Shown: one piece after another, positions 22,739 to 47,462 of the stretch
How the letters are laid out: each line of letters begins with the position of its first letter
Numbering within the stretch: the stretch's first letter is position 1
Assembly (NCBI GenBank): GCA_963697165.1
Contig: CAVOMX010000019.1
Coordinates: 1 to 61,452 of the forward strand
Reading direction: 5' to 3'
Source of the DNA: Candidatus Bathyarchaeota archaeon
GTDB lineage: Archaea > Thermoproteota > Bathyarchaeia > Bathyarchaeales > Bathyarchaeaceae
Length of the DNA stretch: 61,452 nt
Program-made: the position numbers and the translations under genes
The notes under the pieces: model-generated
What the model saw: the letters and a program-made list of their open reading frames with translations, nothing else
What the model was told of the DNA's origin: nothing
The model's database searches: none

Positions 22739-22751
22739 ACCAAAAATTTCC

Positions 22752-22771: not shown

Positions 22772-22783
22772 TAAAAGATTAGA

Positions 22784-22897
22784 GGAAGGGATTGAAAAGG
22801 CTAAAACACAGAAGAATGAAATCTTCCCCTTTTAAAGAAGTTGGAGATGACCATTACTCATCAACAACTGTGTAAAAAAACCTCAGCAAACCCTTCC
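22784..22897. ncRNA. Candidate structured RNA/DNA element, divergent copy 1
   Basis: Nested pairings GGAAGGG/CCCTTCC, TTGA/TCAG, ACACAG/CTGTGT and ATCTTC/GGAGAT. Shares TGAAAAGGCT, ACTCATCAACAA and AACCTCAG with copies 2 and 3. Confidence 0.5.
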
Positions 22898-22937
22898 TTA
22901 AATTAACACTACTACCTTCCTTAAATTAACACTACTA
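22892..22937. repeat. Perfect 23-bp tandem duplication
   Basis: CCTTCCTTAAATTAACACTACTA x2, beginning inside the 3' arm of the hairpin element. Confidence 0.9.
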
Positions 22938-23218
22938 AAAAAATATATTGTTTGTAAACGAGGATAACCAAAATCCAAATGCCAAATCAATAACTTCGAC
23001 AAATAATGTTGGCTTTTTTAGTTACATTACCTTTGCAACTAAATTCATTACTTTGAAATCAACCAAGTAAAATCGCAAACTCTAGAAATGCGTAATCTTT
23101 CAGGAATTTCTTTCCATTAAATTGCTTTTATTGTTTTGATCCACAGCATTATTTTATCAAAAAATATAAATATAAAAAAAAGTAAAGCAGACAAGTCAAA
23201 AATTTACGAGATGAAAAA

Positions 23219-25953: not shown

Positions 25954-26344
25954 ACCACATTTTCCCTCCCCTTTTTTATGGGGAGTAATACGTTTAAGGA
26001 ATAGAAGGGACTGAAAAGGCTTGACCACAGGAAGTGTGAAACATTATTCTCATCTATTGTGGTTAGAAACGTTTCATGCACTCATCAACAAACGCCTGTG
26101 TGAGAACCTCAGATATCCCTTCTTCCTTTAAATTATCCAAAAGTGCCTCTTTTTTGGGGAGTATTAGGTTACTAAGTTGTAGATTTGAAGGAGTTCGGAT
26201 TAGCTAAAGTGGAAAAGAGAATCGATAATATGATTTGGGGTTTTGGGGGGTTTGAGGATGGGGGATCAAAAGCGTAAGAGCGTGATCAAAAGAACAGATA
26301 AAAACACAAAACTCCGAAAACTAACTTTGCAAAAAAATAGATAA
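25680..26344 (+). repeat. Near-identical duplication of C-terminal anchor coding sequence plus ~390 bp downstream DNA (second copy ~31188-31848)
   Basis: From GTAGGTCCAGCAGCTTCAAGCGGCGGACCAATAGA through ...AAAACTCCGAAAACTAACTTT..GCAAAAAAATAGATAA. The copies differ mainly in the linker and in scattered substitutions. Confidence 0.95.
25993..26132. ncRNA. Candidate structured RNA/DNA element, copy 2
   Basis: Nested pairings AAGGAA-TAGAAGGGA/TCCCTTC-TTCCTT, CTGA..GG/CCTCAG, CACAGG/CCTGTG and AGTG-TGAAAC/GTTTCA-TG-CACT. Confidence 0.55.
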
Positions 26345-28463
26345 TTTTAATGACTAGTGCTTTTATGGTATTATCCAATAATTCAGTACAAGCTCAACTT
26401 GCCACAGAGCAACCAATTAGTGGACCTTTGCCTACTGGTGTAACTCCTGATGCTACAGCCAGTCCCAAAACATACCTTAGCTTTAGACCTAACCCAGTAG
26501 GACAAGGCCAAGTATTCTTGGTTAACATATGGACAACACCCGCACCTGGAGCAAATCGAAGACATCTAGAATACACAGTAACAATCACGAAGCCTGATGG
26601 AACAAACATTGTTGTTGGTCCCATGCCATCATTTGTAGATGACGGAACCAACTGGTTTGAATGGATTGCTGATCAGGTTGGTACATGGAAACTAAAGTTT
26701 GATTTCGCTGGAACATATTTCCCCGCTGGTCGATATCTAGAAGGCTACATTGTAACAAATACAACCGGCACACTTTACACCGAATCAGTCTACTATAATC
26801 CAACTCTACTCAAGAACAAATACTTGTAGTTCAAGAAGACATAGTTTATTCTTGGCCTCCAGCAGAACTACCTACAGATTACTGGACACGCCCAGTAAAT
26901 CCCAACAACAGAGAATGGTGGCCAATTCTAGGAAACTACCCTTGGCCATTTGACAACCCAGACTACGACTACGCTGGTCCATACGTCATTGCCCCAAACA
27001 CTCCACATGTTGTGTGGAAACGACAAGGAGACGTCGTGGGTCTAATGGGAGGGGAACTGGGCATCAATACCGCATTTGAGGCGGGCATTGGCACAAACTC
27101 AGCCGGTTTTCCTGCCATGATCTTTGAGGGAAGGGCATACGAGACTGTTACAAAGCCAGGGATCGGAAGTGTTGCAACGTGCTATGACATACGTACAGGA
27201 GAAGTCTTCTATGAAATCCCGACAGCAGAAGGAGGAGTTACGCCCGAAGTAATTGGTTACTCCAGTGTCGCCTTGACATCAAGTAATCGTTGGGAGCTTC
27301 TGGATATAGGTTCAAATCTGATAAAAATTGATCCCTTCACAGGAGCCGTAACAACCAACGTGACAGGCATGTCAGGCACCTTCCACAACGGCGCATACGT
27401 CTTAAGCATGCAGAATCTTGGCGGAGGAAACCGCCAATTGATTAACTGGACCACCGCCGGAAACACAAACAACTTTGAAAGCAGAATAGTAAGTAACATC
27501 ACTTGGCCATGGAGCAACTTGGGAACTACCCAAGACTACGATGCCGGCGTAGCAGTTACGGTATCTGGTATCACTGGAGGAGGAGCTTTTCTAGGACAAG
27601 AGGTGACAGCTGTTAGCCTGAAGACAGGGGTAGAACTGTGGACTAAAACAATCAATGAAGGAGTATACAGCAGTTCATGCAATGTTGCTGACAACGGAAA
27701 AGTAGCTGTTCTAGGAGATCGCGGACACTACTACGCATTCAATTTACAGACGGGAAACTTAGAATGGACAAGCCCAACAATGGATTATCCTTGGGATGAA
27801 CCTGGATTCGGAGCATATGATGTAGGATCAGCATACGGAATGATTTATCACAATGGCTATGGTGGAGTCTATGCTTTCAACTGGGATGATGGTTCAATTG
27901 CTTGGAAGTATGAAGCTCCTACAAACACCTACGAGACGCCATATGTGACCCCAGATGGCACTACTGTCAATTCATGGAATGGAGGTATGCTCATTGCCGA
28001 CGGAAAAATCTACAATTCCAACACCGAAAATTCACCCGTTAACCCACTCCCAAGAAGCGGAAACTTCATTGTATAAATGCAATTACAGGTGAGGGAATAT
28101 GGAATGTGACTGGATTCGCTGGTTCAAGGAACTTTAGAGGAGCTGTAGCAGACGGTTACTTAGCAATCGAAAATATCTATGATGCTTACATGTATATTAT
28201 CGGCAAAGGCAAAAGCACTACAACAGTTACAGCCCCTGATGTTGCAGTACCAAAAGGAACCGCTTTATCAATAAAAGGCACCGGTACTCGATATGTCTCC
28301 TGCTCAGCCAGGAACCCCATGTGTATCTATAGAATCAAGACTTTACAAGTGGAAGATCAACATCTGAGCAACCAATCGACGGAATTTGGCACGATCAAAA
28401 AATATTGGAGTTCAGTGACATTAACAGCTATTTGTTCAGACATGTTACATCGATTTGGCACAG
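26341..28463 (+). pseudogene. PQQ-like beta-propeller surface protein, paralogue 3, truncated at both ends
   Basis: Starts mid-signal-peptide (IILMTSAFMV) directly after the duplicated 3' block. Has several frameshifts, degrades after ~28270, and lacks the linker, TM and tail. It abuts the leader repeat of paralogue 4. Confidence 0.7.
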
Positions 28464-28807
28464 CTATAATTTTTAACTTTGGAGTCAATCAACTAAAATC
28501 GCAAACTATAGACATGTTTGGATTATTTTCGGCTGTTTTTTCCACAAAAAAATAAGCAACATAATAGATCCCTTTTAAAACATTTTTCCTATTTAGAATT
28601 AATAAGTAAAATAAAAATTATTAACCAAAAATACATAATCGTTCAATAATCTTATGCCATAACATCATTTCCTAGCAAACGTTAAATAGATTTTTTACTA
28701 AAATAGTATGCTGTGGGGGAAAAATTAGATTTTTTGCACAATTTTTACCCACAAAAAAAGTATAAAATAAAAAAGGAAAAAACAAAATAAAAAGGAGAAA
28801 AATTCAA

Positions 28808-31456
28808 ATGTTAATAAACAAAACCAAATTAACTGCAACAATAGTTATAACAATATTAATAATTTCTGCTTTTACACTAATGCTAAATTTTCCAGTGCAA
28901 GCTCAATCTAGCTATGAGAATATGCAAGAAGGAGGCTCAATGCCTCTACCGCCGGGCGTTACCCCTGATTATTCAGTTGAAACTCGCACATATCTCAGCT
29001 TCCGTCCTGAACTCTTGGGAGTTGGCCAAATCTTCTTGGTTAACTTCTGGACTCAACCCGCAACTCATGTAAGCCGATATTTATCTGACTTTGCAATAAC
29101 AATCACAAAACCCAGTGGAGAACAACAAGTCGTAACAATAGATTCATTGCGCGGAGATACATCAGGATGGTTTGAATGGATTGCTGATGAGATTGGCACA
29201 TGGACAATAAAAATTGACTTCCCCGGAGGCTACTTCCCAGCAGGAAACTACACTGTATATCCAGGTGCATTCATAGGTCCTCAGGTCGTGGAATTTGAGG
29301 AATCAAGTTACTATGAACCTAGCTCAGATGGACCATATGAACTAGTAGTTCAACAAGATATCGTGCCTTCTTGGCCTGCATCAGAACTACCCACAGACTA
29401 CTGGGAACGACCAGTATCTCCAGAACATAGAGAATGGTGGCCAATTCTAGGAAGCTTCCCATCAGATGGAATTGTAGGAGGAGGATCCTACTGGCCAGCT
29501 GACACAAACATCTACATGAATGACGACTATGATTTCGTTCCCTATGTCCAAGCACCAAACACCGCTCATATAGTATGGAGAAGACAGGACGCCATGGCAG
29601 GACTCATCGGAGGAACAATGGGACAACTTTCGTTAACCGGAAGCGGCAACACTCCAAGCATAATCTATGCTGGAAGATGCTACGACACAATCACAAAAAA
29701 TGTTAATGGAGAGTTGACTAGCGTTTGGCAGTGCTACGATTTACGTACCGGAGAAGTATATTGGGAAAAAACAGATGTGAGCCAAATACCCACTGATCTT
29801 TACTATGGAACATTAGCTAGGGCTACTGTGCCTGGTGGAGGAGCCTACCCAGGGCTAGTAGAGTGCGAGCTTATGTACATAGGTCAAGGAAGGCTGATAA
29901 GATATGATCCATGGGACGGAGATGTAACCTTTGACATGTCGATTGCCCCATTAAGCAGCGCAACCGCCTACTACGATACTTATCCATTCTTCTTGTCAAT
30001 TCAGAACTTAGGTGGCGGAAACTACAGACTAATCAATTGGACAATAGCAGCAGAACATGTAGCTAGCGGCTATAGATATGATTTTTCGCTTGGTGTATTA
30101 AGCAACATATCTTGGCCTTGGAGTAATTTAGGTGACTCCCAAGATTTCGAGTCAATGATCGCATTTGATGTTGCTGGCCTTAATCCTTCTCCGCTGGGAG
30201 CGGGTTTTGGATTAGAAATAAGTTCAGCAGACATGGTAACTGGTCAAGAGCTTTATAGAAAAACAATTGAAGACGATAATATTTTCAGCACCAGCACGGT
30301 AGTCGCTGACCATGGAAAAGGCGCAACAGCTATGAGGGATGGGTACTGGAAGGCATGGGATCTAAGAACAGGAAACTTGGCATGGCAAAGCGAGACAGTA
30401 GACCTTCCTTGGGGACAGTGGTGGCCATACAGTGTAGCTTCAGCTTACGGCATGATTTTCGACGGCAGCTACGCTGGAGTATACGCCTTTGACTGGGATG
30501 ATGGACACATAGTCTGGAACTACAAACACCTAAGCAACCCATGGGAAACTCCATATTCCGGCGAATATTCTTTCCGTGGCAGTAACATTATTGCTGATGG
30601 AAAAGTTTACACCTATAACACTGAACACACACAAACTCAACCTATAACCAGAGGGTGGAGACTTCACTGCATCGACGCATATACAGGAGAAGGCATATGG
30701 AACATTACAGGAGAAATGGTCCCTGGCGCTGTAGCCGATGGCTATCTCACAGCAGGTAGCTCATATGACGGATACTTGAACGTCTTTGGCAAGGGAAAAA
30801 GCGCCACAACAGCTATGGTCTCACCGAAAACTATTGCAAAAGGCGCACCAGTGTTAATTGAGGGCACAGTTTTGGACCAGTCTCCTGCTCAACCAGGAAC
30901 TCCATGTGTGTCCAAAGAATCGATGACCACACAAATGGAATATTTGCACATGCAGCATCCAATTGACGGCATTCTACATGATGAAACGATTACTGGTGTT
31001 CCAGTAACATTGACCGCTATAGCCTCAGATGGTTCATACGTTGACATTGGAACAGTTACAACAGACGGATACTCTGGTACCTTTGGTCATGCGTGGACTC
31101 CAACAGCAGAAGGAACATACAAGATCATTGCATCTTTTGCAAGTGACGAGTCTTATGGGAGCTCATCAGCTACAACATGGGTAACAGTAGGTCCAGCAGC
31201 TTCAAGCGGCGGACCAATAGAGCCTGAACCCTCACCATCACCTTCGCCATCACCATCAGCCATCACCTTCACCTGAACCATCACCATCGCCATCACCTTC
31301 ACCTGAACCATCACCTTCACCTGACACCCGTCACCTTCACCAGAGCCAACACCTGAAACACCTCTGATCACCACCGAAGTAGCAATCATCGCAGCAGTCG
31401 CAGTAGCCAGCATAATCGGCGCAGTCAGCTTCTGGGCACTCAGAAAACGAAAATAA
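28808..31456 (+). CDS. PQQ-like beta-propeller surface protein, paralogue 4 (indels in the Pro/Ser linker)
   Basis: 822-aa ORF with the same motifs. The anchor PETPLITTEVAIIAAVAVASIIGAVSFWALRKRK* is in a shifted frame ending at 31456. Confidence 0.85.
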
Positions 31457-31495
31457 ACCACAAATTTCCCTCCCCTTTTTTATGGGGAGTAACAG

Positions 31496-34722: not shown

Positions 34723-34926
34723 ACGCCCAACAGTAAAACCCTTTTTTTATTTTTTAGAAAATATTACTAACAAAACATTCTTTATGGTTTTTCTAACAAC
34801 CCAATAATTCGTTATTACTCACACATGATTACATACCCGTGATTGTGCTTGGTGCGTGTTTCCTACACGTGATTATACATAAGAAAAAGAAAAATGGAAA
34901 AATATGTGAATAAATATGGATTTACC

Positions 34927-34958
34927 TTAAATTTTATCCCCAAACCCACACACCATAT
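34927..34958 (+). repeat. Degenerate copy of the palindromic intergenic repeat family
   Basis: TTAAATTTTATCCCCAAACCCACACACCATAT. Confidence 0.55.
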
Positions 34959-34995
34959 CCTCAAATTGTATTAAAATTGAGAAAAAAGAGACAAA

Positions 34996-35140
34996 ATGCA
35001 CACCATAACGATTCAAGGCGAAATCAAAAAACATAAAGTTTTGTTGTATGCTATTAGCACCTGCCCTTGGTGTAAAAAAGCGAAGGAACTTCTGAAAGAT
35101 AATAAAATCGAAGTTAAGTATGTTGATGCGGACTTGTGCA
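34996..35140 (+). pseudogene. Glutaredoxin/NrdH-like gene, 3'-truncated
   Basis: KVLLYAISTCPWCKKAKELLKDNKIEVKYVDADLC (CPWC active site); similarity ends at ~35140. Confidence 0.75.
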
Positions 35141-35247
35141 AGAGAATCAATCATAATTACAAAACTAACAGCAATAAAATACCCCTTGATATTGATAAAA
35201 CGCCTAGATTTACGTCTTCTAATCTCTTTTATCGCATAATCAAACAT
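35134..35247 (-). pseudogene. ABC transporter permease (MacB/FtsX-like) N-terminal fragment
   Basis: MFDYAIKEIRRRKSRRFINIKGYFIAVSFVIMIDSLAQ matches the A-x-x-E/N-x-x-R-R-K-x-R...G-x-x-I-A/G-V start of such permeases. Confidence 0.55.
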
Positions 35248-35364
35248 TTAGGAACAACAGTATTTTATTTTCTTAAATTATTTAATAGTATGAGCCTTCG
35301 AAAATTGGTTACAACTTGAATTCAAATCAAACAGTTACTGGATATTTCTATACAGATTCTACAG

Positions 35365-36864
35365 CTAATTTTTATCAGCACTATTCGATGTGCTATTATA
35401 GGCCCTTTTTCTGATTAAGAAGAAGATTCCTAGTAGAATTGTAGCCAATATTGCACCTAAAGCTGCCAAATAGATGTATGGAAAACCAGTTGGTTCAGTG
35501 GCAATGGACCATATCCTCATATCAGGGTCACATAAGGCGTCTAGAGTCATGCAACCAACTGATACTATTTCATGTTTCCCATCATTATCCAAATCTCCTG
35601 CACCTACATTCATAACTGCTAAACCATCTGCAAGGGTCCAATCTTCTTTCTGTTTTAGAGTTAATACCTCACCATTCCAACCAAAAACCCTAAGCTGAGC
35701 AGCATCTCTTGTAGCCTCAGCATTTTTGAAGCTTCCATAAACAGATGTTAAACCACCGGTCACAATATCTAAAATTCCATCGTCATCAACATCATTCAAC
35801 GATACAACTTTTACTGCGGTTATATCTTCTGTGATCCATTCATGGCTCTCCTCCAAAGAAAGAGCTTCATCAAAATGCCAAACTCTAAGTTGAGCATTAA
35901 TTTTTTCTCCATCATAAGTAAAGCCTCCAGTAATAATTTCTACAGAACCATCTCCATCAACATCACCCACTTTCAGATTCTCAACCAAAGTGTTACCCAT
36001 TACACCTCCGGCATTAGTCAATCCATAACATCCCTCAACCATACGCCATTCCTGATTTATTTGTAGCATAAGATTTTCTCCATCCCAATGCCAAATCCGA
36101 AGTTGTCCACTGCTATTTTCTAGACCATTATCATAACCAACAGTAATAATTTCGATTTCATTATCCCTATTCAAGTCATAGGCAAAGACCGAGTTTGCCC
36201 TAGCATCATTTGAAGCACACCATTCCACGTTTTCTTTTAAGCTAAGTGTATCTCCGTCCCACTTCCATATCTGAAGTTGAGCGGTAGATTGGACATCATA
36301 TGATGACCTTGATGTTGTGAGAATTTCTTTTTCACCATCTTTGTCTAGGTCGCTTACAAAAATTGAATTTACCGAAAACCCTTCATGACTACCCTTAAGA
36401 ACCACATTTTCTCCATCATAATTCCATATTCTAATTGAGGAAGAAATCCCAGCTGGACCCAAAACATTTCCTCCAGTTATGATTTCCATAACATTATCGC
36501 CATCTAGATCTTCACAATAGATACAACGAATATTTCCTTCCCAATGATGACTTTTTTCAAGAACAATTTCATTTCCAATCCAGTTCCAAAATTTTAATGG
36601 TGCCTCACTTGTTGAACGTTCCCCATTCACGATATTATACAATGAACCGCCTGTTATTATTTCTAAAACGCCATCATTGTCAACATCAGCTATGAACAGG
36701 TTATGTGAACCCGAAATACAGGTTCCACCTTTACCATATGTCTCCCAATGCTGTTCTCCTTCTAAAAATAATCCACTAGATTGTGCTCTTACAGTTATAC
36801 TAAAAACCAAAACTGAAACAATACTAAAAAACAACAAAATTCTGACACGAGTAGAACAAACCAT
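35365..36864 (-). CDS. FG-GAP/VCBS-repeat (integrin-like beta-propeller) membrane-anchored protein
   Basis: Seven D-x-D/N-x-D-G-x-x-E/D-I repeats (e.g. DVDNDGVLEII, DLDGDNVMEII, DVDGDGSVEII), signal peptide and C-terminal TM. Confidence 0.85.
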   Translation of the reverse strand: MVCSTRVRILLFFSIVSVLVFSITVRAQSSGLFLEGEQHWETYGKGGTCISGSHNLFIADVDNDGVLEIITGGSLYNIVNGERSTSEAPLKFWNWIGNEIVLEKSHHWEGNIRCIYCEDLDGDNVMEIITGGNVLGPAGISSSIRIWNYDGENVVLKGSHEGFSVNSIFVSDLDKDGEKEILTTSRSSYDVQSTAQLQIWKWDGDTLSLKENVEWCASNDARANSVFAYDLNRDNEIEIITVGYDNGLENSSGQLRIWHWDGENLMLQINQEWRMVEGCYGLTNAGGVMGNTLVENLKVGDVDGDGSVEIITGGFTYDGEKINAQLRVWHFDEALSLEESHEWITEDITAVKVVSLNDVDDDGILDIVTGGLTSVYGSFKNAEATRDAAQLRVFGWNGEVLTLKQKEDWTLADGLAVMNVGAGDLDNDGKHEIVSVGCMTLDALCDPDMRIWSIATEPTGFPYIYLAALGAILATILLGIFFLIRKRAYNSTSNSADKN

Positions 36865-37024
36865 ATTAGAATTACCTACTCAAATAAGAAATTAGTTTTA
36901 CCGTTAAGCAAATAAACTTTTCTTAATAATCAAATCCTAGAAATCCCCCAGTGGTAACCTTTTTGCATATTGATTTTAACTTACATTATTCACCATAATG
37001 TTTGATCAAAAATATAGTTTCGAT

Positions 37025-37060
37025 TTTGGGGTTAAATTTTAACCCCAAACCCAAACATAT
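37025..37060 (+). repeat. Best-preserved copy of the palindromic intergenic repeat family
   Basis: TTTGGGGTTAAA-T-TTTAACCCCAAA (perfect 12-bp inverted repeat, 37025-37049) followed by CCCAAACATAT. Confidence 0.9.
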
Positions 37061-37215
37061 GTACTTGTTTGCGTACCCCCGCGTGTGCGTGTGTGCCCGT
37101 CCACCCCTGTCCACTCACGCTCGCTCTCGCTCGCTCACGCTCAACCTATATAAATTCAATAAAACAAAAAAAGAGAAGAAATTGGAGGATAATCTACATT
37201 CTCCAATCTTTTAGG

Positions 37216-37734
37216 TTATGCCGTCTTCCCCATTTCTCTGAAACGAACAACTTTGCTCTTGTCTTTGTCCAAAAACATTTTTCCTTTCTCAACGCTCAGA
37301 TACGCAGCAAGAGTCCCAATAGTAGCCATCCCAGGAACCACCTTTGCATCTGGAAGTGCACTCTTTATTCCTCCAAAACCAGCCATACAACTCAAGGCAA
37401 TAGCTGCATCAGAATTTTTGAAAGCTTTAACAATAGAACTTCGACCTTTCTGATTTAATTGACAGAAGGGCGGATTCGGAAGATTAAAGTACTTAAGGCT
37501 AACTGTTTTTCCCTTGCTTTCTAACAATCGCCTAATTCGGTTAGCCTCTTGCCCCATCGGGTAAGGATTAAAATGGAAACCAAAAAACGATACCTTACCA
37601 AGTTCTAATATATCCTTCGCATACCCAAGGCTTTGATTAGCACAGTAAGGACATTCAAAGATAGTAATAGAGCTTGCATCTCCAACTTCCCGCAAAAGAT
37701 ACTCATCGGTTGCAATTTCAGAATAACTCCCCAT
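37216..37734 (-). CDS. Cys-containing protein similar to MetV/MTHFR-C-terminal-domain family N-region
   Basis: ITIFECPYCAN...PFCQL...DAAIALSCMAG cysteine spacing. Confidence 0.45.
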   Translation of the reverse strand: MGSYSEIATDEYLLREVGDASSITIFECPYCANQSLGYAKDILELGKVSFFGFHFNPYPMGQEANRIRRLLESKGKTVSLKYFNLPNPPFCQLNQKGRSSIVKAFKNSDAAIALSCMAGFGGIKSALPDAKVVPGMATIGTLAAYLSVEKGKMFLDKDKSKVVRFREMGKTA

Positions 37735-38108
37735 AAAATTCCCCCCTTTCCTTTAAGTCACTATGCACGTGCCCATTCAAATCACGAGCACATACAGATT
37801 AACATGGTACACATAACCTGCTTATACGCCTTTAATTTTAAAAAATAAACCCAAACCTATAAGCGTTATATCAAATTTTAGAACATTGCTGTATATGGAA
37901 CTTCATTTTTTAGGTCCAGCTTAAGATTGATTAATTGATACGAATGATACATCTGTTAATTTTCATATTTTTATCAATTCTTTTAACATCTTTTCCTTTT
38001 ATTTCAACCACTAAGCAAAAACATAATGGCTTTTTAACAAATTTTCAATCACTAAGACAAATCAATTTTTTTAAGTTACAAAAAGTAGTCCCAAATTTGA
38101 TCTTCCTC

Positions 38109-38489
38109 ATGAACCAGTTCGATTACATGATTCAAAACAACTTACGCGTTTGGTTTTTGTGGACAGGAGGGTTCATTTCTTGGATTTTAGGATGTTGCTT
38201 TTGGGTTCTACAAGCAGATATTGCCTCATTAACTTTTATAACAACTTCAATTATTTTCTGTTTGCTAGCAATAGTTACTATTTCTAAAAGAAATATAATT
38301 GAAGCATCCAATCGGAAAAGAGTTAACCTTAGACTATCAGTTTATGTTTTAATTATTTCAATTTCTGTTGTAACTATGGTTGCATTCAAATCCTTCGCTG
38401 CCGGAATAACTACGATTACCCTTTTACTGCTTTTCTTGTACGATTGGACAGTGATTAAAAAAAGGTTAAAGTTTAACCCCCAAAACTAG
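38109..38489 (+). CDS. Small four-TM membrane protein
   Basis: Hydrophobic ORF from ATG 38109. Its last codons and stop lie inside a repeat-family copy. Confidence 0.55.
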   Translation: MNQFDYMIQNNLRVWFLWTGGFISWILGCCFWVLQADIASLTFITTSIIFCLLAIVTISKRNIIEASNRKRVNLRLSVYVLIISISVVTMVAFKSFAAGITTITLLLLFLYDWTVIKKRLKFNPQN

Positions 38490-38612
38490 CCCAAACGTGT
38501 TTGTCCACGCCAATCTACATATTTTTTCTTCCTAACTCATGCTCATATTAGTTTTCTCTTATTCTTTCTTACCTACCCTCACACGCAAAAACCACACGAA
38601 CGCGCACACACA
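38464..38612 (+). repeat. Long (~150 bp) copy of the palindromic repeat family
   Basis: GGTTAAA-G-TTTAACC CCCAAAACTAGCCCAAAC...TCTACAT...CCTAA...TTTCTCTT...ACCTACCCT...CACACGAACGCGCACAC aligns with 44150-44292. Confidence 0.8.
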
Positions 38613-38675
38613 AAAAATAATGAAAGGATAATTGGAAAACTTCTTGTATTCTAAGTAATGTTCTGAATTTTTGAA

Positions 38676-39803
38676 TTATCGATTTTTGAGGGAAATAAAT
38701 TTGGTTCCGTATGCACCAATATATCTTGATGTTGGACGAAGCAAAACCGCATCTGAATACTGTTCTAGAATGTGAGCTACCCATCCTGTTACTCGACTTG
38801 AGGCAAAAAATAACGTAAAGAATTCTTTGGGAACATCTAATGCATTCAGAACTGTGGCAGCATAGAAATCAACATTCGGATAGATTTTTTTCTCTTTGTG
38901 AACAACTGCTTGAATCTTTCTACATTTCTGATATAATTCCATTCGATCAATGCGTTGACATAAAGATTTGCTCACTTTTCTAAGATGTCTTGATCGAGGG
39001 TCATCTACCACGTAAATTCTGTGACCAAATCCCATTATCTTCTTTTGGTCAAATAAGATTCCTTGTATGTAAGCTTCTACTTCTCCAACGTTGTTAACGT
39101 CAAGCAGCATATTCATCACTCTCTCGCTAGCTCCACCATGCAGTTTTCCTTTGAGTGTTCCTATTGCAGAGGTTATAGCCGAGTACATATCTGACAAGGT
39201 GCTAGCTGTAACGCGTGCAGCGAAAGCAGAAGCATTTAGTCCATGATCAGCATGCAGAATCATGTACCGTTCAATCGATTCTTTTTCTTCTTCATCTGCA
39301 GGTTTTCCCCGAAACATGTATAGAAAGTTCTCAGAAAAACCATATTCTTTCTTTGGATCTACAATCTCCTGTTTAGTTCTCACTCGATGGATGATTGCAA
39401 CTAACGTTGGGACTTTAGCTATCAAACCAAGGGCTCTTTTGTTGTTAGCTGATTCAGAAGTGTCATTTGGGTTAGAGTCATATTGTCCTAGGTGCGATAT
39501 TTCGGTTCGTAATATTTCCATTGGATGGCTGCTTTTTGGTGCATTCTTAATGCTTTGGATTATTTGTTCGGGTAATTTCATTTCGGAAGTGAGTGCTGCT
39601 TTTAGGGTATTTAGTTCACTTTCGTCAGGGAGTTTTTTGTTCAATATAAGGTGAATCACTTCTTCATAGCACACTCTACCCAAGAGACGGTCAATGTCAT
39701 AACCAACATAATAAAGCGCACCAAGAGGATCAACAAAACTAATTTGAGTTTCGCAAGCTGCAACATCCCTTAAGCCGCGAACATATTTTTTTTCAGAGGA
39801 CAT
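38676..39803 (-). CDS. Citrate/2-methylcitrate synthase
   Basis: GLRDVAACETQIS, HADHGLNASAF, LKGKLHGGA, IMGFGHRIY, YPNVDFY and LLRP motifs. Confidence 0.95.
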   Translation of the reverse strand: MSSEKKYVRGLRDVAACETQISFVDPLGALYYVGYDIDRLLGRVCYEEVIHLILNKKLPDESELNTLKAALTSEMKLPEQIIQSIKNAPKSSHPMEILRTEISHLGQYDSNPNDTSESANNKRALGLIAKVPTLVAIIHRVRTKQEIVDPKKEYGFSENFLYMFRGKPADEEEKESIERYMILHADHGLNASAFAARVTASTLSDMYSAITSAIGTLKGKLHGGASERVMNMLLDVNNVGEVEAYIQGILFDQKKIMGFGHRIYVVDDPRSRHLRKVSKSLCQRIDRMELYQKCRKIQAVVHKEKKIYPNVDFYAATVLNALDVPKEFFTLFFASSRVTGWVAHILEQYSDAVLLRPTSRYIGAYGTKFISLKNR

Positions 39804-40117
39804 TTTCAAATTCAACTCTCAATTTTTAGTAAGTTTATGCTACCACATGCACTGAAAACGCATTCAATTTTGATAAGGTAATCAAGAACAACCTAAAGCT
39901 TAACTTCTTCTAAAATACCCTTTAGTTAACAGATTATGGGAAACACTAGACTAAATAAGAATAGTAAATAAAGTCTTATTAATGCTTCTAAAATCTACTG
40001 GGCAATTTGTTTATTGTGCTGGGTTTGTTTTAACTATAGGTAAAGCTAGATTTATTAAAGCAAATTATCCGACATGTCTTTTTACGAATCGTTTTAGTAT
40101 CTCTTGTAAAAATTTCT

Positions 40118-40182
40118 GCTTCTTCTATCTCTTACTCACTCCCCCTCACGTGTGAAACCCGCACGCACTCGCACACAAACAC
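40118..40182 (+). repeat. 3' half of the long repeat family unit
   Basis: GCTTCTTCTATCTCTTACTCACTCCCCCTCACGTGTGAAACCCGCACGCACTCGCACAC resembles 38551-38612 and 44231-44292. Confidence 0.6.
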
Positions 40183-40407
40183 AAAATCAAAACATAATTT
40201 CTATTTCTGATTGGTTCGCCAACTGGAAAGTAGTTCATTTCTTCCTTTTTTTGGATAGTTTAAGGTTTCTATTCTTTGTGTTTTGAGTTTTTAGAAAAGA
40301 TGAATTCTACGGTGTTATGAAGTTTCTTTCTGCAGACTGAAAATTAGAGGTATTGCTAAAAGCATTACCCCTAAATCGATGATAAAAAATCGGGGATTAT
40401 TGCAGTT

Positions 40408-40948
40408 TTATCGGCGCGCGCTTTTCTTTTTAACCATGAATAGCCCTAAAGCCAATGCGATCGCTGCAACTGCTCCTATGGTTCCCAATGGTGTTTCTGG
40501 AACAACGAATATTGGAAAATTCTGGCGTATATCTAGTGGGAGCGAAAAATCAGCCACATTACTTCCTCCTTTTGCATTATGGAAGATGACTTTAACGTTC
40601 CATTCACCGTGCACATTTGGAGTATATGTACCTTTGAGCATACTTTACTAGAGCAGTGGTACCGTCAGCATATTGTCCGACCGTGCCATTTGTATATACA
40701 GAGGGCATATCCTCATGAAATACTTCACCGTCGGGTCCATACCATCTGATGGTTATTAATTCTACATCAGGGTCTAGGGTTCCAGCGGTTATTGTCACAG
40801 GTGTTCCTTGTGGCGAAACTGGTCCGCTTATGTTTGAAGTTACAGCAAAACCTGTTCCCAAAGTTTCCCATGAAGCATAGGCTACATTCATAAGAAGAAG
40901 CGTTATAACAACTGTCGAAATCCCAAAAGTTAACAATTTAGTTTTCAT
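40408..40948 (-). CDS. Small secreted Ig-like protein with VPE-TM-basic (PEF-CTERM-like) sorting signal; one indel near 40635
   Basis: Signal peptide MKTKLLTFG...AYA, and C-terminus FVVPETPLGTIGAVAAIALALGLFMVKKKSARR. Confidence 0.75.
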
Positions 40949-41364
40949 TAATCTCCTTCTCCTAACTAAAATTGGTTAGCAAATACTGCCATATAAATTA
41001 CTCTGGAACTTTTTTCTATATTTGAATAATACATCAGCTAATCCTTTTTTCTTAGAATAATCATACACGCGCATTAAAAATTGAATAAATCATGTTTTTA
41101 TTCTCGAAAAAAAACATGAGATGTATCACGTTTCAGAAGAGCTCTATTTTTATGATATTTGAGTCTTCCAACCATTTATCGGCTGGTAATTCTTACTGAT
41201 CATTACCTTTTTCAACAATCCTATTTTCTGTAAGGTTGATAGATCTTTCATTAGTTGTACTTTGTCGATCAGGATTTCAGTCATTTTCTGATAAGTGAGT
41301 GAAATATTATTGTGCGTTGGCAAAGTCGTTTTTTCAGTTTGGAGTGTATTATCGAATAATTGTT

Positions 41365-41515
41365 TATTTCACTTGTTAGAGCCATTAAAAAATATTTCGA
41401 GATCCGGGTAAAATACTGCAAATGTTGCGGTAATTATTGTTGTGATTTTTGGCATCAGTGGTAAAATATCTGTGGTAAAAGAGAGGAACCCTGATTTATC
41501 ACCAGATTTTTCCAT
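41365..41515 (-). pseudogene. Possible N-terminal remnant of an exosortase/archaeosortase-family gene
   Basis: Reads MEKSGDKSGFLSFTTDILPLMPKITTIITATFAVFYPDLEIFFN-ALTSE, resembling from memory the first TM of archaeal exosortase-like proteins. It lies upstream of a VPE-CTERM gene. Confidence 0.3.
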
Positions 41516-41668
41516 GACTTTTAATCCAATATCATCTCCTAAAAAGTTAGAGTACTAAAGATTGGATTATTTAATCTGGTGTATGATACCTTTTCAAACA
41601 GAAAAAAATAGACCTACTCACTTTTTCCTTTATTTTATAATACCCTAAACATTAAGCGCAAAAACGGT

Positions 41669-42610
41669 ATGCATAAACTTTTTATAGAGTCCCAATCGAG
41701 AAAGGATATGCTCCATAGAGTAAAGGGATTTCTAACGTTCATTTCCTTTGAAAGAGGGATAATGCTTTTCATGATAACTATGGGAGCAACATTTCTGATG
41801 GCAGAGAAACCCACATTCTTTGGAGCGATTTACTTAGGCATTGTCGCCTTTTGTGGATGGAGTGGAGTAGATGCAATAAACAACGTTTATGATGTTGATT
41901 TGGACGTAAAATCTGACCCGCTTAGAGCAGATTATACAAAGAATCTTGGGAAAATGGGACTTTTAATATCCTTAATCTTCTTTGCATTGTCTATGAGCCT
42001 AGGCGCAATCACTGGAATCCAGCTAGTAACTGTTTTTGTTTTTATCGGGATTCTTGCAGGAGTCGCATATTCAATGCCGCCATTTAGACTCAGACAAACA
42101 ATATACAAACCAGTAGTGAACTTATCTGTTGGCGCCGTTCCTGTTCTAATCGTAGCTGCCTTCTTCAACGTTTTTTCTGTTCAAATACTGGCCTTAATGC
42201 TTCTCATGGGCATATCCACTGCAGTCAACAGTTTATGGGAAGACTTGGCAGACTACAAATCAGACCTTAATGCCCATGCACGAACCATACTAGTCACATT
42301 AGGGATTAAACGCGGACTTTATCTCACAATAATAATGGGTTACAGTCTTATCCCACTCATGATTCTAGTTGGAGTCCTATTCAACCTGAGTCCACTTTAC
42401 TTTGTTGTCCTCAGTGGACTCATAACGTATCTATCCATTCGTCTAATTCAAAACCGTCACGTCCTCGTAGGAGGCACCCAAAACGATACAAAATCAATGC
42501 TCAAGCTAGGCGAAGCATTCGCAAAAGATTTCGTTATAATCGCATTGGTGCATACAACAAACTTGATGATAAACGGCTACCTAATATACAACCAAGTTTT
42601 CTTGATTTAA
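41669..42610 (+). CDS. UbiA-family prenyltransferase
   Basis: Asp-rich motifs INNVYDVDLD and EDLADYKSD, YSMPPFRL, multiple TMs. Confidence 0.9.
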   Translation: MHKLFIESQSRKDMLHRVKGFLTFISFERGIMLFMITMGATFLMAEKPTFFGAIYLGIVAFCGWSGVDAINNVYDVDLDVKSDPLRADYTKNLGKMGLLISLIFFALSMSLGAITGIQLVTVFVFIGILAGVAYSMPPFRLRQTIYKPVVNLSVGAVPVLIVAAFFNVFSVQILALMLLMGISTAVNSLWEDLADYKSDLNAHARTILVTLGIKRGLYLTIIMGYSLIPLMILVGVLFNLSPLYFVVLSGLITYLSIRLIQNRHVLVGGTQNDTKSMLKLGEAFAKDFVIIALVHTTNLMINGYLIYNQVFLI

Positions 42611-42960
42611 AAAAATCTCTTGAAAACAAGCCGTTCCCTATTTTGACAAGAAAAACTTTAACCCACAAAGCCATAGAGACTCGTCGTAAAATGTGTCAAG
42701 AATTAACACCCAAAACAAATCAACAAACGTAACGAATAGTTAACAGAACCTGAAAGTTAATGAAGAGTCTACTTGGGATTGACTCTTCGCTGCATTTGTT
42801 TTTTGGTGGACTTGTTTTTGATAAGTGGTTAGTTAGTGGTTTCAGATTGATGCAATTGGAAATAGTTTTTGATGATCTTTGTTTTATTATTCTTCCAGGG
42901 AGAATTCTATCCAGAGGATAATGGTCTGAGATTCGCCTTGAAATTTGGTTTAGGTTGGTC

Positions 42961-42990
42961 GGGTTAAAATTTAGCCCCCTAACCCAAATA
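42961..42990 (+). repeat. Copy of the palindromic repeat family
   Basis: GGGTTAAA-A-TTTAGCCCCCTAACCCAAATA. Confidence 0.75.
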
Positions 42991-43064
42991 CGTCCATTTC
43001 TGTTCATTCATACAAACATAACTAAATCGAGTATGTATGTCATCTCCATACAATTAATTGGGAC

Positions 43065-43601
43065 TTAATTTTTAGGTTTATTAAACAAAAAATATGCTAA
43101 TCGGGAAAAAAGGGAAATTGCAGTTGAAACTACAATTCCAATAGTAACTATATCGTAGACTAGTTTTTCAGGAAAGAGTAACGTTAATCCTATGCCACCA
43201 AAAAGAAGACTACCCAAATATCTCCCAATTGGATCATAGATGACCCGCTCCGAGTAGAGACTTGTTAATATGAATTGCTCAAAAACAAAGACTAACAAAA
43301 TAAAAATCCATGCAGGATAAAAACCTTTTACAATGAAAGCCATGAACAACCCATAAATAAAAATAAAATCAACGATTGTATCAAAGAAGGCTCCCGACTT
43401 TGAAGAAACTCCCAGTTTTCTAGCGATAAAGCCATCCACAAGATCAGTCCCAATCGAGAAAACAAACAAGAAATATACAACAAATTTCATATCAAGAAAA
43501 AATGTGTAAATAAGAAAAGGTAAAACAACTAGTCTGAGACTGGTTAAAATATGTGGAATGATTTGTTTTTGTCCAGAGAGTTTAATTTTCAAACAAATCA
43601 T
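43065..43601 (-). CDS. CDP-alcohol phosphatidyltransferase family protein
   Basis: IPHILTSLR and TDLVDGFIARKLGVSSKSGAFFDTIVD (D-x-x-D-G-x-x-A-R...G-x-x-x-D-x-x-x-D). Confidence 0.92.
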   Translation of the reverse strand: MICLKIKLSGQKQIIPHILTSLRLVVLPFLIYTFFLDMKFVVYFLFVFSIGTDLVDGFIARKLGVSSKSGAFFDTIVDFIFIYGLFMAFIVKGFYPAWIFILLVFVFEQFILTSLYSERVIYDPIGRYLGSLLFGGIGLTLLFPEKLVYDIVTIGIVVSTAISLFSRLAYFLFNKPKN

Positions 43602-43667
43602 CCTTCAGTAAATGTATCAAATTCGAGATAGAAAAGCATTTATAAATTTTGAAATGTATGACTAAAC

Positions 43668-44018
43668 ATGACAGATAGAAATTATAAGATTTTAATGATC
43701 TCACTAGCATTAACAATCATCGGCGAAATCGCTTCAATTGCTATATGGTATTCACAACCAGATATGCGGATGACGTTAATGGTTGATTATACAACAGCAA
43801 GTGTTGCAGCTGCAGTTGCTACAGTATTGAATATTGTAGCTTTAATCGGGGTTCGTAGAAAAAGCAAATGGGGTTCTCTTCTGGTAATTGCAGTTTCGAT
43901 ACCTAATAGAATCTTAGGATTGTTCCTTTTTGAATCGCCTATTTCTACGGGAGTCTTCGCAATATGGACCGCCTTATTGGTGATCTTCGCATACATGAAT
44001 TATCGAGATATAAAGTAA
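43668..44018 (+). CDS. Small four-TM membrane protein
   Basis: 116-aa hydrophobic ORF preceded by TTTATAAA. Confidence 0.7.
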   Translation: MTDRNYKILMISLALTIIGEIASIAIWYSQPDMRMTLMVDYTTASVAAAVATVLNIVALIGVRRKSKWGSLLVIAVSIPNRILGLFLFESPISTGVFAIWTALLVIFAYMNYRDIK

Positions 44019-44140
44019 TAAAATCATGACTGAATGCTAGTTTCAATTAGACACTGCGCTCAGTGTCCTCTTAATTTCCTATTTTTTGCATTAACTCTAT
44101 TAGTCATTGGATTGCAGCTCAAAAAGCGAAAGTGTCATTG

Positions 44141-44292
44141 TTTTTGGGAGGTTAAATGTTAATCCCCCAAACTTAACCCCAAACTTTCTTACGTGTCTAC
44201 ATTTTTACTCCCTAATTCTTTTTCACAATCGCTTTCTCTTTCTCTCTCACCTACCCTATCCTAACGTGCAAACGCCACGCACACGCACGCGC
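44141..44292 (+). repeat. Long copy of the palindromic repeat family
   Basis: TTTTTGGGAGGTTAAATGTTAATCCCCCAAACTTAACCCCAAAC...TCTACAT...CACCTACCCT...CACGCACACGCACGCGC. Confidence 0.8.
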
Positions 44293-44416
44293 TGGAAGGG
44301 GAAAGGAATGAAATAAGAGGGCTTCATTGGCACATGTGCACAGGTACTATTTAATATTCAAATAAGACAATTGGAATTGGGTAAATTAAGCAGCGATTTG
44401 AGGGAGGAGGTATATT

Positions 44417-45679
44417 ATGGGAAGTGAATCGTTTGATGTTGAGAAAACTGCAATCGAATTGGTTATGAACGATAATGTGACAAAAAAGAGGCAATTGGCA
44501 AAAAAGATCTTTGACGTTGCATATGAAGAGGGAATTTATTCCTCGAGCATCCATGATTTTTATATGGCTCGCGGCAGGGGTGAATTCGGGGGTTTCACAG
44601 TCCCTGCTATAAACTTGAGGAGCATGACTTACGATCTGGCTCGTGCAATATTTAGAGTGGGGGAGAAAAATGGTTCTGGCGCTTTTATCTTTGAGATTGC
44701 CAGGTCTGAGATCGGTTATACCGATCAGGCGCCGATTGAATATGCAAGTATGGTTCTGGCAGCAGCGATAAGGGAAAGCTATTCCGGTCCAGTCTTTATC
44801 CAAGGAGACCATTTTCAGGTCAACGCCGCCAAGTTTAAAGAGAATCCGGATAAGGAAATTGAAAGTTTGCAGGCTTTAATGGGGGATGCGATTGGTTCGG
44901 GCTTCTATAACATTGATATTGACTCGTCAACCCTTGTTGATGTTTCCAAACCGGATTTGAAAGAACAGCAACGTCTGAATTATGAGGTCTGTGCAAGGCT
45001 CACGCAGTTTATCCGCCGTGTTGAGCCGAAAGGGATTACGATTTCGGTGGGTGGAGAGATTGGCGAGATTGGGCATCAGAATTCGACGCCTGAAGACCTG
45101 CAAGCATTTATGACCGGTCTCGAAGAAAGCTGGAAAAGGGTTTGGCTGGCATAAGTAAGATTTCAGTTCAGACGGGGACAACTCATGGCGGCGTTGTTCT
45201 GCCTAACGGGTCAATAGCGCAAATCAAGCTTGACTTTAACACGTTGAAAACTCTTTCTGAGATTGCCCGCAGAGAATATGGGTTGGCTGGAGCTGTGCAA
45301 CATGGAGCATCAACCCTGCCTCCTGAGGCTTTCCACAAGTTTGTCGAATGTGAGACCGCTGAAGTGCATTTGGCCACGGCAGTTCCAGAACATGATTTAT
45401 GAATCAGAGCACTTTCCGGTTGATCTGAAGAAGAGAATTTACGAATGGCTAAAAGTCAATGTCGCAAGCGAGGCAAAAAAAGACGAAACTGAAGAACAAT
45501 TCCTTTACAAGACCCGAAAAAAAGCGTTGGGACCATTCAAGAAAGAAATTATGGGACTGCCACAACAGACGCGTGATGCGATTGCAGCTGAAATCGAAAC
45601 AAAATTTGACTTCCTCTTCAAGCAGCTCAACGTCGTAAACAAGAGAGCCTTAGTGAATAAATACTGCACCCACGAGTAA
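44417..45679 (+). CDS. Class II fructose-bisphosphate aldolase family protein (indels near 45130 and 45380)
   Basis: [51 protein letters not shown] and VQHGASTLP motifs. Confidence 0.9.
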
Positions 45680-45894
45680 ACTAAAGTCTCTTAATATCGA
45701 TGAAAAAAAGCATGAAAAATGTGTGTCTCTCTGCATCAATTGTCTTTATATAGGATGGCCTTTGAACCTTTAGGGTAGTTTTTGATTTTTCAAAAGTTCC
45801 ATTTGGAAGTCTAGTGCATATGGAGCTAAACAATTGCGCCGTTCGAAATAAATCGAACGCGCACGTTTTACGAAGAGTCTTTAGGTGTTTGATT

Positions 45895-45945
45895 GAGTGG
45901 GGCTTGGGGATTAAAATTTAACACTTCCACAAAAAACACACATCA
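45895..45945 (-). repeat. Copy of the palindromic repeat family, inverted orientation
   Basis: Reverse complement reads TGTGTTTTTTGTGGAAGTGTTAAATTTTAATCCCCAAGCCCCAC. Confidence 0.7.
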
Positions 45946-46059
45946 CAAACATTTTATTTTGATTTTGAAGTTCACTTTTTTGATGTAACAATAATGACAT
46001 TTTGTTCATAGAAAACCAATTAAGTTGCAAATACTCAAGAAAACTGCAGGTTAATACTT

Positions 46060-47409
46060 TTGTTTTTTAATGAAGAAATTGAAACAATGAAACGAGAAAA
46101 CCTTGACTCGATGGTTGAAGATCGTATACGCTACACAGTGAGATATGCAAATGAAAACTCACCATTCTACCGGATGTGGTTTCGAAAAAATGGAGTGAAA
46201 CCCAGAGAAATCCGCACACACACTGACCTCTTAAATCTTCCAATCGTGACTAGTAAGACAATTCTAGAAAACCAGCCACCTATGAGTCAAGATTTTCAGT
46301 TTAAAAGTATTGACTGGAGTGAAGTTTTCACAATCCATGAAACCAGTGGCACAAGCGGTTCTCCAAAAACATTTTTTCTCACATGGAATGACTGGGAAAG
46401 ATATGCTGAAAAATATGCAAGAGCCTTTGTGTCTCAGGGGTTTGGCACAGGTGATCGTGTTGTGATTTGTGCTTCATATGGCATGAACGTAGGCGCCAAT
46501 ACTATGACTCTAGCTGCCAGAAAAGTTGGCATGACTATAATACCGGAGGGTAGGTGCACTTTTCCTCTTCGCGTCATTATGAATTACAACCCTACAGGTC
46601 TTGTGGGAAGTGTTTTTAAATTTCTAAGACTCGCCAGACAAATGTTTAAAGAAAAAATTTCCCCTAGCGAATTGGGTGTAAAACGTTTAGTAGTTGGTGG
46701 GGAAAGTTTTGCTGAAGAATCCCGTTCGTATCTTTCTGAAGTTTGGGGATGTGACGTTTTTAATACTTATGGAAGCACAGAGGGTACAATGTGTGGGGAA
46801 TGCAGCCAGACAAATGGACTTCATGTTCCAGAAGATTTGGTGCATCTGGACGTTTATGATCCAAGTCTTCATGATTTTGTTGGAGATGGAGAATGTGGTA
46901 GAATAATTCTTAGTACATTGTTGCCAGTGGGCGAAAAAAGTGGTAATTTGTTACTTAACTATGATACAGAAGACACATCCGTGGTGCTTTCTAGAGATAG
47001 ATGCGTCTGCGGTAGAACTCATATGAGAATAGTTAATCCCCAGCGTGAAAAGGAGACTTTTTGGATACATGGATCTCCTTTTAATCGTGTGGATGTGGAA
47101 CAAGGCGTTTTTCAGCGGGAGAATATGGAGTATCTTACAGGGGAATATGAGGCGTTTTTGTATGGAGATCAACTGGGTGAAGTAGCAACTCTTAGCGTGA
47201 ATCTTGAGTGCTCAGATTACAAAAAATGTAATATTCCAGTTGTCGAAGAGAATTTTCTCAAAGGATTTCTTAAATTCAAACCACAACTTAGGAAAGAACA
47301 CTTAGAAGACAAATTAGTAATTGAAATTAATTTCGTGAGACAAAACGAACTTGAAATTTACAAGTTTAAAGGCAGACCCAAAAGAGTGGTAGATAGAAGG
47401 CAACATTGA
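46060..47409 (+). CDS. ftsA: Coenzyme F390 synthetase (adenylate-forming, phenylacetate-CoA-ligase superfamily)
   Basis: IHETSGTSG, FFLTWNDWERYAEKYAR, CASYGMNVGANTMTLAA, GGESFA, NTYGSTEGTMCGEC and LLNYDTED are motifs I recognise from methanogen F390 synthetases. This is not the cell-division FtsA. Confidence 0.8.
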   Translation: MFFNEEIETMKRENLDSMVEDRIRYTVRYANENSPFYRMWFRKNGVKPREIRTHTDLLNLPIVTSKTILENQPPMSQDFQFKSIDWSEVFTIHETSGTSGSPKTFFLTWNDWERYAEKYARAFVSQGFGTGDRVVICASYGMNVGANTMTLAARKVGMTIIPEGRCTFPLRVIMNYNPTGLVGSVFKFLRLARQMFKEKISPSELGVKRLVVGGESFAEESRSYLSEVWGCDVFNTYGSTEGTMCGECSQTNGLHVPEDLVHLDVYDPSLHDFVGDGECGRIILSTLLPVGEKSGNLLLNYDTEDTSVVLSRDRCVCGRTHMRIVNPQREKETFWIHGSPFNRVDVEQGVFQRENMEYLTGEYEAFLYGDQLGEVATLSVNLECSDYKKCNIPVVEENFLKGFLKFKPQLRKEHLEDKLVIEINFVRQNELEIYKFKGRPKRVVDRRQH

Positions 47410-47412
47410 AAG

Positions 47413-47462
47413 ATATGTTTGGGTTTGGGTTTAAATTTTAGCATCTCTCAACAAAAACACGC
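47413..47462 (-). repeat. Copy of the palindromic repeat family, inverted orientation, 4 bp after the F390 synthetase stop
   Basis: Reverse complement GTGTTTTTGTTGAGAGATGCTAAAATTTAAACCCAAACCCAAACATAT matches 37031-37060. Confidence 0.8.

Follow-up and report, generated by a model that had tools for sequence, protein, structure and literature searches.

Casposons are Cas1 transposons bounded by terminal inverted repeats (TIRs), and they were originally defined as elements that also encode PolB (PMC4046053, PMC6563490, PMC9939771). According to the accessible parts of the reports on family 2 casposons of Methanosarcina and Aciduliprofundum (PMC4046053, PMC4779613, PMC5137440, PMC10359463), these elements duplicate a target of 14-15 bp, insert in tandem into the duplicated target and decay to solo TIRs, for which M. 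mazei provides an example (PMC4779613); besides PolB they have a Cas1 carrying a C-terminal helix-turn-helix (HTH), and they use few loci (tRNA or intergenic), with at most three solo TIRs named in one strain. The family 1 casposase of Ca. Nitrosopumilus koreensis, as described in the accessible text, has no HTH, produces a 13-bp duplication in vitro and tolerates varied ends (PMC8464041), while family 1 has a protein-primed PolB (PMC6563490) and mostly targets the aEF-2 gene at a non-palindromic 13-mer. A fifth family of casposases/casposons was proposed by Salgado et al. in 2022 (PMC9755687), with stand-alone Cas1 proteins that lie near type I-A, keep the catalytic residues and lack the C-terminal HTH, mostly without PolB and with TIRs in some of the contigs; the main text of that article, in its accessible form, uses neither "TSD" nor "primase" and touches on target duplication only in a reference title. 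The present study concerns a stretch of 61,452 nucleotides, referred to as a whole as the window, from contig CAVOMX010000019.1 of a Candidatus Bathyarchaeota archaeon, in which a short palindromic repeat punctuates a string of accessory genes, and the sites of this repeat are very probably junctions left by PolB-less casposons resembling those of family 5.

In relatives of this archaeon we found the features of the casposon superfamily, namely a stand-alone cas1 gene with the four likely catalytic residues, TIRs and a 13-bp target duplication, with neither a CRISPR array nor a cas operon detected beside cas1 in the loci and ORFs scanned. Unlike the self-synthesizing casposons of families 1-4, none of the 17 elements contains PolB, and, also unlike family 2, the target itself is palindromic and the scars are counted in dozens. 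A 13-bp palindromic target, a small gene resembling archaeo-eukaryotic primases (AEPs) and about 90 scars per genome set these elements apart from family 5 as the accessible text describes it. The element type is therefore known in outline, having been proposed in 2022, and what is new is the 13-bp boundary, the roughly 90 scars in a genome and the arrays of single genes that run in one direction; the openly searchable literature yielded no account of this repeat or of casposon targets in Bathyarchaeia. Below, G000 denotes the genome under study (1.99 Mb, assembly 81% complete), G011, G013 and G019 are other genomes of the genus, and L-numbers are loci from metagenomes or related genomes.

Cas1 elements and the boundary of their ends

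When 343 open reading frames (ORFs) from 80 metagenome and 4 genome loci were clustered, the largest of the 267 protein clusters beside the sites was Cas1, with 9 ORFs, identified by PF01867 and TIGR00287. Full-length relatives of this cas1 occur in 4 of 24 genus genomes, and six genus cas1 genes from these four genomes lie between inverted repeats of 116-206 nt that are 93-99% complementary. A search of species genomes gave 38 cas1 loci, some duplicating those of the genus, with further inverted-repeat pairs among them. Fifteen cas1 elements have paired ends; in 12 of them the 13-mer is repeated perfectly in direct orientation, in one it is a direct repeat with one mismatch and in two it is inverted. 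Counted from the centre of the site, positions 0-6 are direct in 38 of 41 informative cases and positions 7-10 are inverted in 72 of 77, and non-palindromic variants of the 13-mer are duplicated directly in L191, L208, L226, L230 and L239, the centre being unrelated in L226. Because variants are copied to both ends and the positions read in this way, the 13-mer is a target-site duplication and the TIR starts at +7; a duplication of 15 bp was rejected, since 8 of the 10 informative cases have position 7 inverted. A sixteenth element, the ends of which lie in L076 and L077, and a 677-bp cas1-free element with TIRs (L051) likewise carry perfect direct repeats of 13 bp.

Judged from these alignments, each site is best read as a composite, with GTTAAAWTTTAAC, the 13-bp core, as the duplicated target site and the CCCAAACCCAAAC flank, together with the tail of about 130 bp, as the TIR. 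A preliminary description of the window had treated the palindrome and its asymmetric flank as one site and expected breakpoints at the palindrome centre. Breakpoints do fall at the sites, as shown below, but the unit is a duplicated target joined to a transposon end, and therefore strands would be cut at the edges of the 13-mer and not exchanged at its centre.

The homology between the window tails and the element ends was examined with a TIR-tail profile built from 11 tails, the palindrome and the AAACCCAAAC arm being left out. Six of the tails came from elements with both ends, and the other five (L062, L050, L067, L085 and L076/L077) from beside cas1/AEP modules; L076/L077 was unpaired when profiled, and its pairing was confirmed later. 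The profile matches three window tails at E values of 4e-11 to 1e-6 and gives 16 matches in G000, with none in the reversed genome. In addition, four casposon gene relics remain in G000, and three of them are no more than 1.3 kb away from a site, compared with the 10% of the genome that lies within 1.5 kb of one. Re-use of a target is seen at one gene end, where half of the target is made up of the last codons of the gene: in G011 the element at this place is intact and of the CT type, a different, CCCAAA-type end is found at 3 of 11 orthologous positions, in G013 followed by a cas1 fragment, and the remaining 8 positions have no end.

The type of TIR largely tracks the Cas1 tree, since six rows with CCCAAACCC ends form one clade (100/100), two further such rows fall in other clades, and CT-rich ends mostly mark another clade. 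Long matched TIRs are almost confined to the surroundings of cas1. The joined 3' end of these elements is G-rich; to our knowledge, the ends of known casposons finish in C. The TIR ends of L186, L189, L208, L228, L230 and L241 have one G-poor strand with short repeats (AAACCC, AACC, CT, CTT or poly-A), the number of which differs between the two ends in a manner reminiscent of telomere-like slippage. In L210:1143-13609 and L199:6397-8111, the duplicate of the junction is inverted and takes in 10-20 nt of the outer flank, which suggests intramolecular inversion events.

Cas1, its companion gene and cargo

The predicted catalytic residues of Cas1 are kept almost throughout the 37 proteins (E162 in 37, H227 in 36, D239 in 36 and D/E242 in 37), their equivalence to E. 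coli E141/H208/D218/D221 being read from motifs. Eight aligned Cas1 proteins of about 330-350 aa end soon after the catalytic domain, without a C-terminal HTH, and the best solved relative is 4n06. The N-terminal and C-terminal motifs look like those of Cas1_938 and Cas1_1200 of family 5 in a comparison by eye, and the protein probably belongs to the proposed family 5 casposases. A simple k-mer scan detected no CRISPR array near 24 cas1 loci or in G000, and no other cas family was found among the 55 ORFs scanned.

A gene for a protein of 150-220 aa accompanies cas1 in 13 of the 17 elements and falls into two groups, which are related to each other at an HH probability of 96.6. PF24387 was detected in 8 of 10 members of group 1 (best E 7.5e-5, the member shown being below the curated cut-off) and in 1 of 14 members of group 2, and an atlas search has a PF24387 cluster at rank 20 (0.94). 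AEPs are the longest structural matches, with low Z scores of 4.5-5.5, and Foldseek gave nothing at E<=0.001. The protein may tentatively be called AEP-like on these sequence and structure comparisons, and it might take the place of PolB in the elements. At L188:9361-12325, PolB comes immediately after a related cas1 and an AEP-like gene before it; no TIR pair was found in 19 kb. The interiors of L190, L187, L077, L097 and L191 carry defence-type domains as cargo, namely the TIR protein domain, Schlafen AlbA_2, HEPN AbiV, Mrr, AbiJ and Fic.

The site family in the genome and in the window

With up to 3 mismatches allowed, the 19-bp pattern GGGGTTAAANTTTAACCCC occurs at 5 places in the window, where shuffled sequence would give 0.02. 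With a 41-bp profile, refined iteratively on the genome, 88 sites are detected in G000 at a score of at least 17, compared with 0-1 sites at a score of at least 16 in shuffled DNA. Seven of them are in the window, in agreement with the at least seven related sites first reported, and are centred at 34932+, 37037+, 38471+, 42969+, 44157+, 45916- and 47436-. Conservation is highest at AAAWTTT, which has GTT/AAC at its flanks; CCCAAACCCAAAC is usually present to one side. The features of the window are as follows.

34926-34951, + strand: degenerate 13-bp target (34926-34938) with a short TIR end; profile score 31.
37031-37126, + strand: consensus 13-bp target (37031-37043) with TIR end and tail; score 49, the best copy in the genome.
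38465-38621, + strand: 13-bp target (38465-38477) with a near-full TIR; score 30.
40123-40193, + strand: inner half of a TIR, its outer end and target lost; TIR-tail profile E 4.2e-8.
42950-42990, + strand: 13-bp target (42963-42975) with TIR-like arms on both sides, read from the sequence; score 29.
44151-44303, + strand: 13-bp target (44151-44163) with a near-full TIR, upstream of the aldolase; score 28.
45892-45922, - strand: 13-bp target (45910-45922) with a short TIR end facing the aldolase; score 36.
47413-47442, - strand: 13-bp target (47430-47442) with a 17-nt TIR end, 4 bp past the stop of the F390 synthetase; score 37.
34996-47409, no single strand: accessory genes between the scars, named from Pfam/NCBIfam; homologues on scattered contigs in relatives.

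Several details noted at the outset are borne out by the sequence, namely the perfect 12-bp arms at 37025-37049, the tail common to the sites at 38471 and 44157 with a partial tail near 40120, and the site 4 bp past the stop codon at 47409. The tail at 37059-37126 is 90% identical over 70 nt to that of a site in L103; 38514-38621 and 44190-44303 match the TIR-tail profile at E 3.9e-11 and 1.1e-6, respectively, and the copy at 44151-44303 is 73% identical over 122 nt to the L077 TIR. In the piece near 40130, 52 nt are 90% identical to the TIR of the cas1+AEP element with ends in L076/L077, and the arm of the site at 47413-47442 starts like the L187 TIR. Outside the seven sites no score in the window exceeds 7, and from 47600 onwards the maximum is -0.7; the stretch beyond 50 kb therefore contains no site, as had been reported. 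The half-sites proposed near 26230 and 31730 did not hold up, as they score -9.5 and -7.1, lack the 13-bp core and instead lie within a 187-bp duplication between beta-propeller paralogues. These tandem, PQQ-like paralogues with Pro-Glu/Pro-Thr repeats occupy 19907-31461, several of them being split, and duplications of 187-300 bp lie downstream of them.

The genes between the scars encode a glutaredoxin-like protein, an FG-GAP protein, two unknowns, citrate synthase, a UbiA-like protein, CDP-alcohol transferase, a class II aldolase split in two pieces (44417-45154 and 45263-45679) and F390 synthetase. The earlier gene labels agree with Pfam/NCBIfam apart from "MetV-like" (37216-37734), which has no match in either library. 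In G019 the aldolase is likewise enclosed by one + and one - site, and the F390 synthetase orthologue (85% identical) has no site. The aldolase (44417-45679) is frameshifted, and close-strain contigs show indels at 45126 and 45378-45382, so the frameshifts may be assembly errors or strain differences.

Across G000 the sites are clustered, since 59 of the 88 have another site no more than 3 kb away, whereas random intergenic placement gives 24 on average and 38 at most; the median nearest-neighbour distance is 2.0 kb. Eighty-one copies are outside called ORFs. There is no promoter bias: of 80 intergenic sites flanked by called ORFs on either side, 20 are found between convergent genes, compared with 233 of 1302 gaps overall, and the distances to starts vary widely. 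An Rfam search of the window gave no match, and viral contigs contained no match to the site and no relative of the casposon Cas1. A second repeat family, with 24 copies in G000 and none in the window (e.g. C10:2350-24740 and C24:137000-148800), consists of a short TGGAGATATCTCC-like palindrome followed by CCCGCAAA-C-run-T-run; it is often found beside copies of tRNA 3' ends, often abuts the short side of the 13-bp site, and possibly represents the ends of tRNA-targeting elements.

Distribution and gene order in relatives

The sites are abundant only in this genus. A 25-bp site pattern is present in 16 of 24 other genus genomes and in none of 16 from other genera, and among 301 genomes of the class a 17-bp pattern reaches 25, 23, 15, 14 and 9 sites in five members of the genus, all other genomes having between 0 and 3. 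Relatives carry the homologues of the genes at 34-50 kb at scattered places, whereas the segment from 50 to 61 kb is largely collinear with them. The UbiA-like gene of G019 lies immediately next to its orthologue of the 50081 gene, and therefore 42.7-50 kb is extra in G000 relative to G019.

A metagenome scan yielded at least 125 site-bearing loci, and breakpoints were counted from alignments of at least 90% identity and 150 nt, with the end required to lie within 35 nt of a site in both partners. Among the loci listed, this was the case for 15 of 27 internal alignment ends, and for 11 of 20, in seven junction groups, after removal of duplicate loci, against about 4% of all bases that are as close as this to a site; these figures are to be read with the caution that loci were picked for carrying a site, that 45 of them are short and site-centred, and that assemblers can mis-join repeats. 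Metagenome contigs that are 97-99% identical part exactly at the site in some examples. No clean pair of empty and filled alleles was found among the relatives compared, which are 70-85% identical, and no run of close-strain contigs covers even half of the window. The gene at 47579 was tried as a breakpoint marker and gave no breakpoint, because relatives hold only full-length paralogues of 27-35% identity (one match of 47-52% is in two pieces). Contig joints between window sites, with sides of 20-37 letters that are probably the repeat itself, were not used.

Origin of the sites

Taken together with the casposase chemistry described in the accessible parts of earlier reports (PMC5137440, PMC6977970, PMC8464041), the following route can be proposed. 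The Cas1 casposase would cut the palindromic 13-bp target GTTAAAWTTTAAC, variants of which would be tolerated, with a stagger, and would join the 3' ends of the element to staggered positions 13 bp apart (the element ends begin with CCCAAACCCAAAC in this subfamily), after which gap repair would duplicate the 13-mer on both sides. A palindromic target would permit insertion in both orientations. Each copy of the 13-mer would be a fresh target, on which later elements could land as on any old scar, and islands would therefore grow; decay of the elements to solo ends and hybrids such as L098 would leave accessory-gene islands punctuated by target-plus-TIR scars. What the data show directly is how the elements are built, where the 13-bp boundary lies, that the window tails are homologous to TIRs, that different elements re-used one site and that breakpoints fall at sites; catalysis by Cas1 and the way in which the window genes came between the scars are inferred. 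These genes may have moved as cargo, and their cassette-wise assembly is possible. The preliminary description was right about a mobile-element family, accessory regions, breakpoints at sites and independence from promoters, and missed the enzyme and the anatomy; in place of the tyrosine recombinase or HUH/TnpA that it proposed to look for, the likely partner is a Cas1 casposase.

Several observations weigh against a casposon origin of the sites. G000 holds only broken cas1 fragments and no intact Cas1 in its 81% complete assembly, and its sites are therefore relics. Its 88 sites stand against four core-gene relics, fewer than simple decay of whole elements would leave, and no match to the interiors of the 16 elements tested was found among 180 ORFs near its sites, compared with 5 among 1794 other ORFs. 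Neighbouring sites, which are 0.3-3.5 kb apart, mostly point in the same direction (27 of 38 in G000 and 114 of 161 overall), an excess that counts here because two-ended elements alone do not predict it. The junction centres were placed manually, with the longest direct repeat as the guide, the 13-mer is inverted in the two elements mentioned above, and the inverted-repeat pairs around cas1 in L214, L216, L217 and L218, which have no direct 13-mer, were excluded from the tally. Finally, close-strain contigs span 42969, 44157 and 45916 unchanged; those junctions are therefore old, which speaks against present activity in this lineage.

A conceivable extension, which we regard as rather doubtful, is that the casposase also moves cas1-free single-gene units with two direct 13-mers and one strong TIR end, and, with the same reservation, that the arrays were built cassette by cassette, like an integron or a CRISPR array with gene-sized spacers. 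The prevalence of same-direction neighbours fits this extension, as do the cas1-free element L051, a 266-bp unit that is site-bounded at both ends in two neighbourhoods (L060/L146, 91%), a 0.6-kb unit that is 99% identical in two neighbourhoods, and the sharing of the central base by same-direction neighbours (45 of 58 versus 36.1 shuffled, p 0.0015, and 36 of 56 versus 31.2, p 0.09). Among 200 inter-site units, one cas1-free unit is in this way site-bounded twice, one nearly so and one loosely. Excision of a casposon in M. mazei, in the accessible account, leaves one empty target, the circle being proposed and not detected (PMC10359463). On the other hand, genes that stayed in place while different elements landed beside them would look alike, and such re-use is seen here. 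The homology of the 0.6-kb unit breaks off about 40 nt before the second site, and a TFIIB unit comes to an end 50-100 nt away from sites that are not homologous. No enrichment is seen for rare variants shared by neighbours, and the central-base signal may reflect a genome-specific bias. Like CRISPR arrays and integron or pdif arrays, the sites re-use a short, often palindromic repeat for each insertion and separate units of one direction; unlike CRISPR arrays, the units are 0.3-12 kb rather than 30-40 bp, and the regular 55-90-bp period with Cas1-Cas2 that marks a CRISPR array is not seen, and unlike integron or pdif arrays there is no attC or dif geometry and no resident tyrosine recombinase. 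An extra TFIIB paralogue occurs among sites in three neighbourhoods at about 91% identity (L066:2811-3746, L099:3047-3982 and L022:12960-13895), and G000 has one at C3:6407-7512.

It is a good deal less likely that the sites are substrates of a tyrosine recombinase (pdif-, attC- or lox-like), cas1 being mere cargo. The conserved 7-bp centre would suit a spacer, G000 has 10 integrase-family matches, and members or fragments of a zinc-ribbon integrase occur in 5 of the 125 metagenome loci listed, in two cases directly beside a site; yet none of the ten is beside a window site or matches the interiors of 16 elements, the family is found in 23 of 24 genus genomes whatever the site count, Pfam found no tyrosine recombinase among the ORFs scanned from five intact elements, and, as first reported for the window, Pfam/NCBIfam reveal none among its proteins. 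Moreover, long matched TIRs are nearly restricted to the surroundings of cas1, and target variants over 13 bp, including the unrelated L226 spacer, are present at both ends, as staggered cutting predicts. A host recombinase might also act secondarily on old scars. Assembly mis-joins at a short repeat are a very improbable source of the breakpoints: the breakpoint pairs do come from metagenome assemblies and share a repeat of 25-40 bp, but mis-joins could inflate only the breakpoint count and would leave unexplained why cas1 genes of independent genomes lie between matched TIRs of 116-206 nt with variant 13-mers directly duplicated. We give even less credence to a transcription-factor operator, for which the palindrome, the AT-rich centre, which we take to be Lrp-like, and the location outside called ORFs might argue, because some copies lie between convergent genes, distances to starts vary widely, flanks break at the site and the site borders transposon ends.

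G000 also encodes multi-copy tyrosine recombinases of about 400 aa with an N-terminal zinc ribbon (C20:7074-8258, C25:156088-157485, and on C6, C1, C17, C10 and C14), fragments of which abut tRNA-Glu and tRNA-Pro.

Implications for archaeal genome evolution

If the sites are casposon junctions, casposon scars would explain accessory islands in a widespread sediment archaeon, with a palindromic target multiplied to about 90 copies in a 2-Mb genome and marking gene-order changes between relatives. One proposal derives CRISPR repeats either from the TIRs of casposons or from a casposon target that was duplicated (PMC6452270), and the 13-bp boundary, together with the scale of the scars and the same-direction arrays, makes the target-to-repeat idea testable. 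A more speculative view, for which we hold out limited hope, is that the Cas1 casposase of the genus is a general gene-capture integrase that inserts and removes cas1-free, gene-sized units at a self-copying palindromic 13-bp repeat and so builds arrays of accessory genes in one direction; if true, the system would represent an extant intermediate step from casposon to CRISPR array, its repeat derived from target duplication, doing the job of an integron. The system offers a compact and defined substrate, consisting of a Cas1 of about 345 aa without an HTH, a 13-bp target and a short end, which suits asking how a palindromic target turns into an array of repeats and whether Cas1 alone can shuffle genes.

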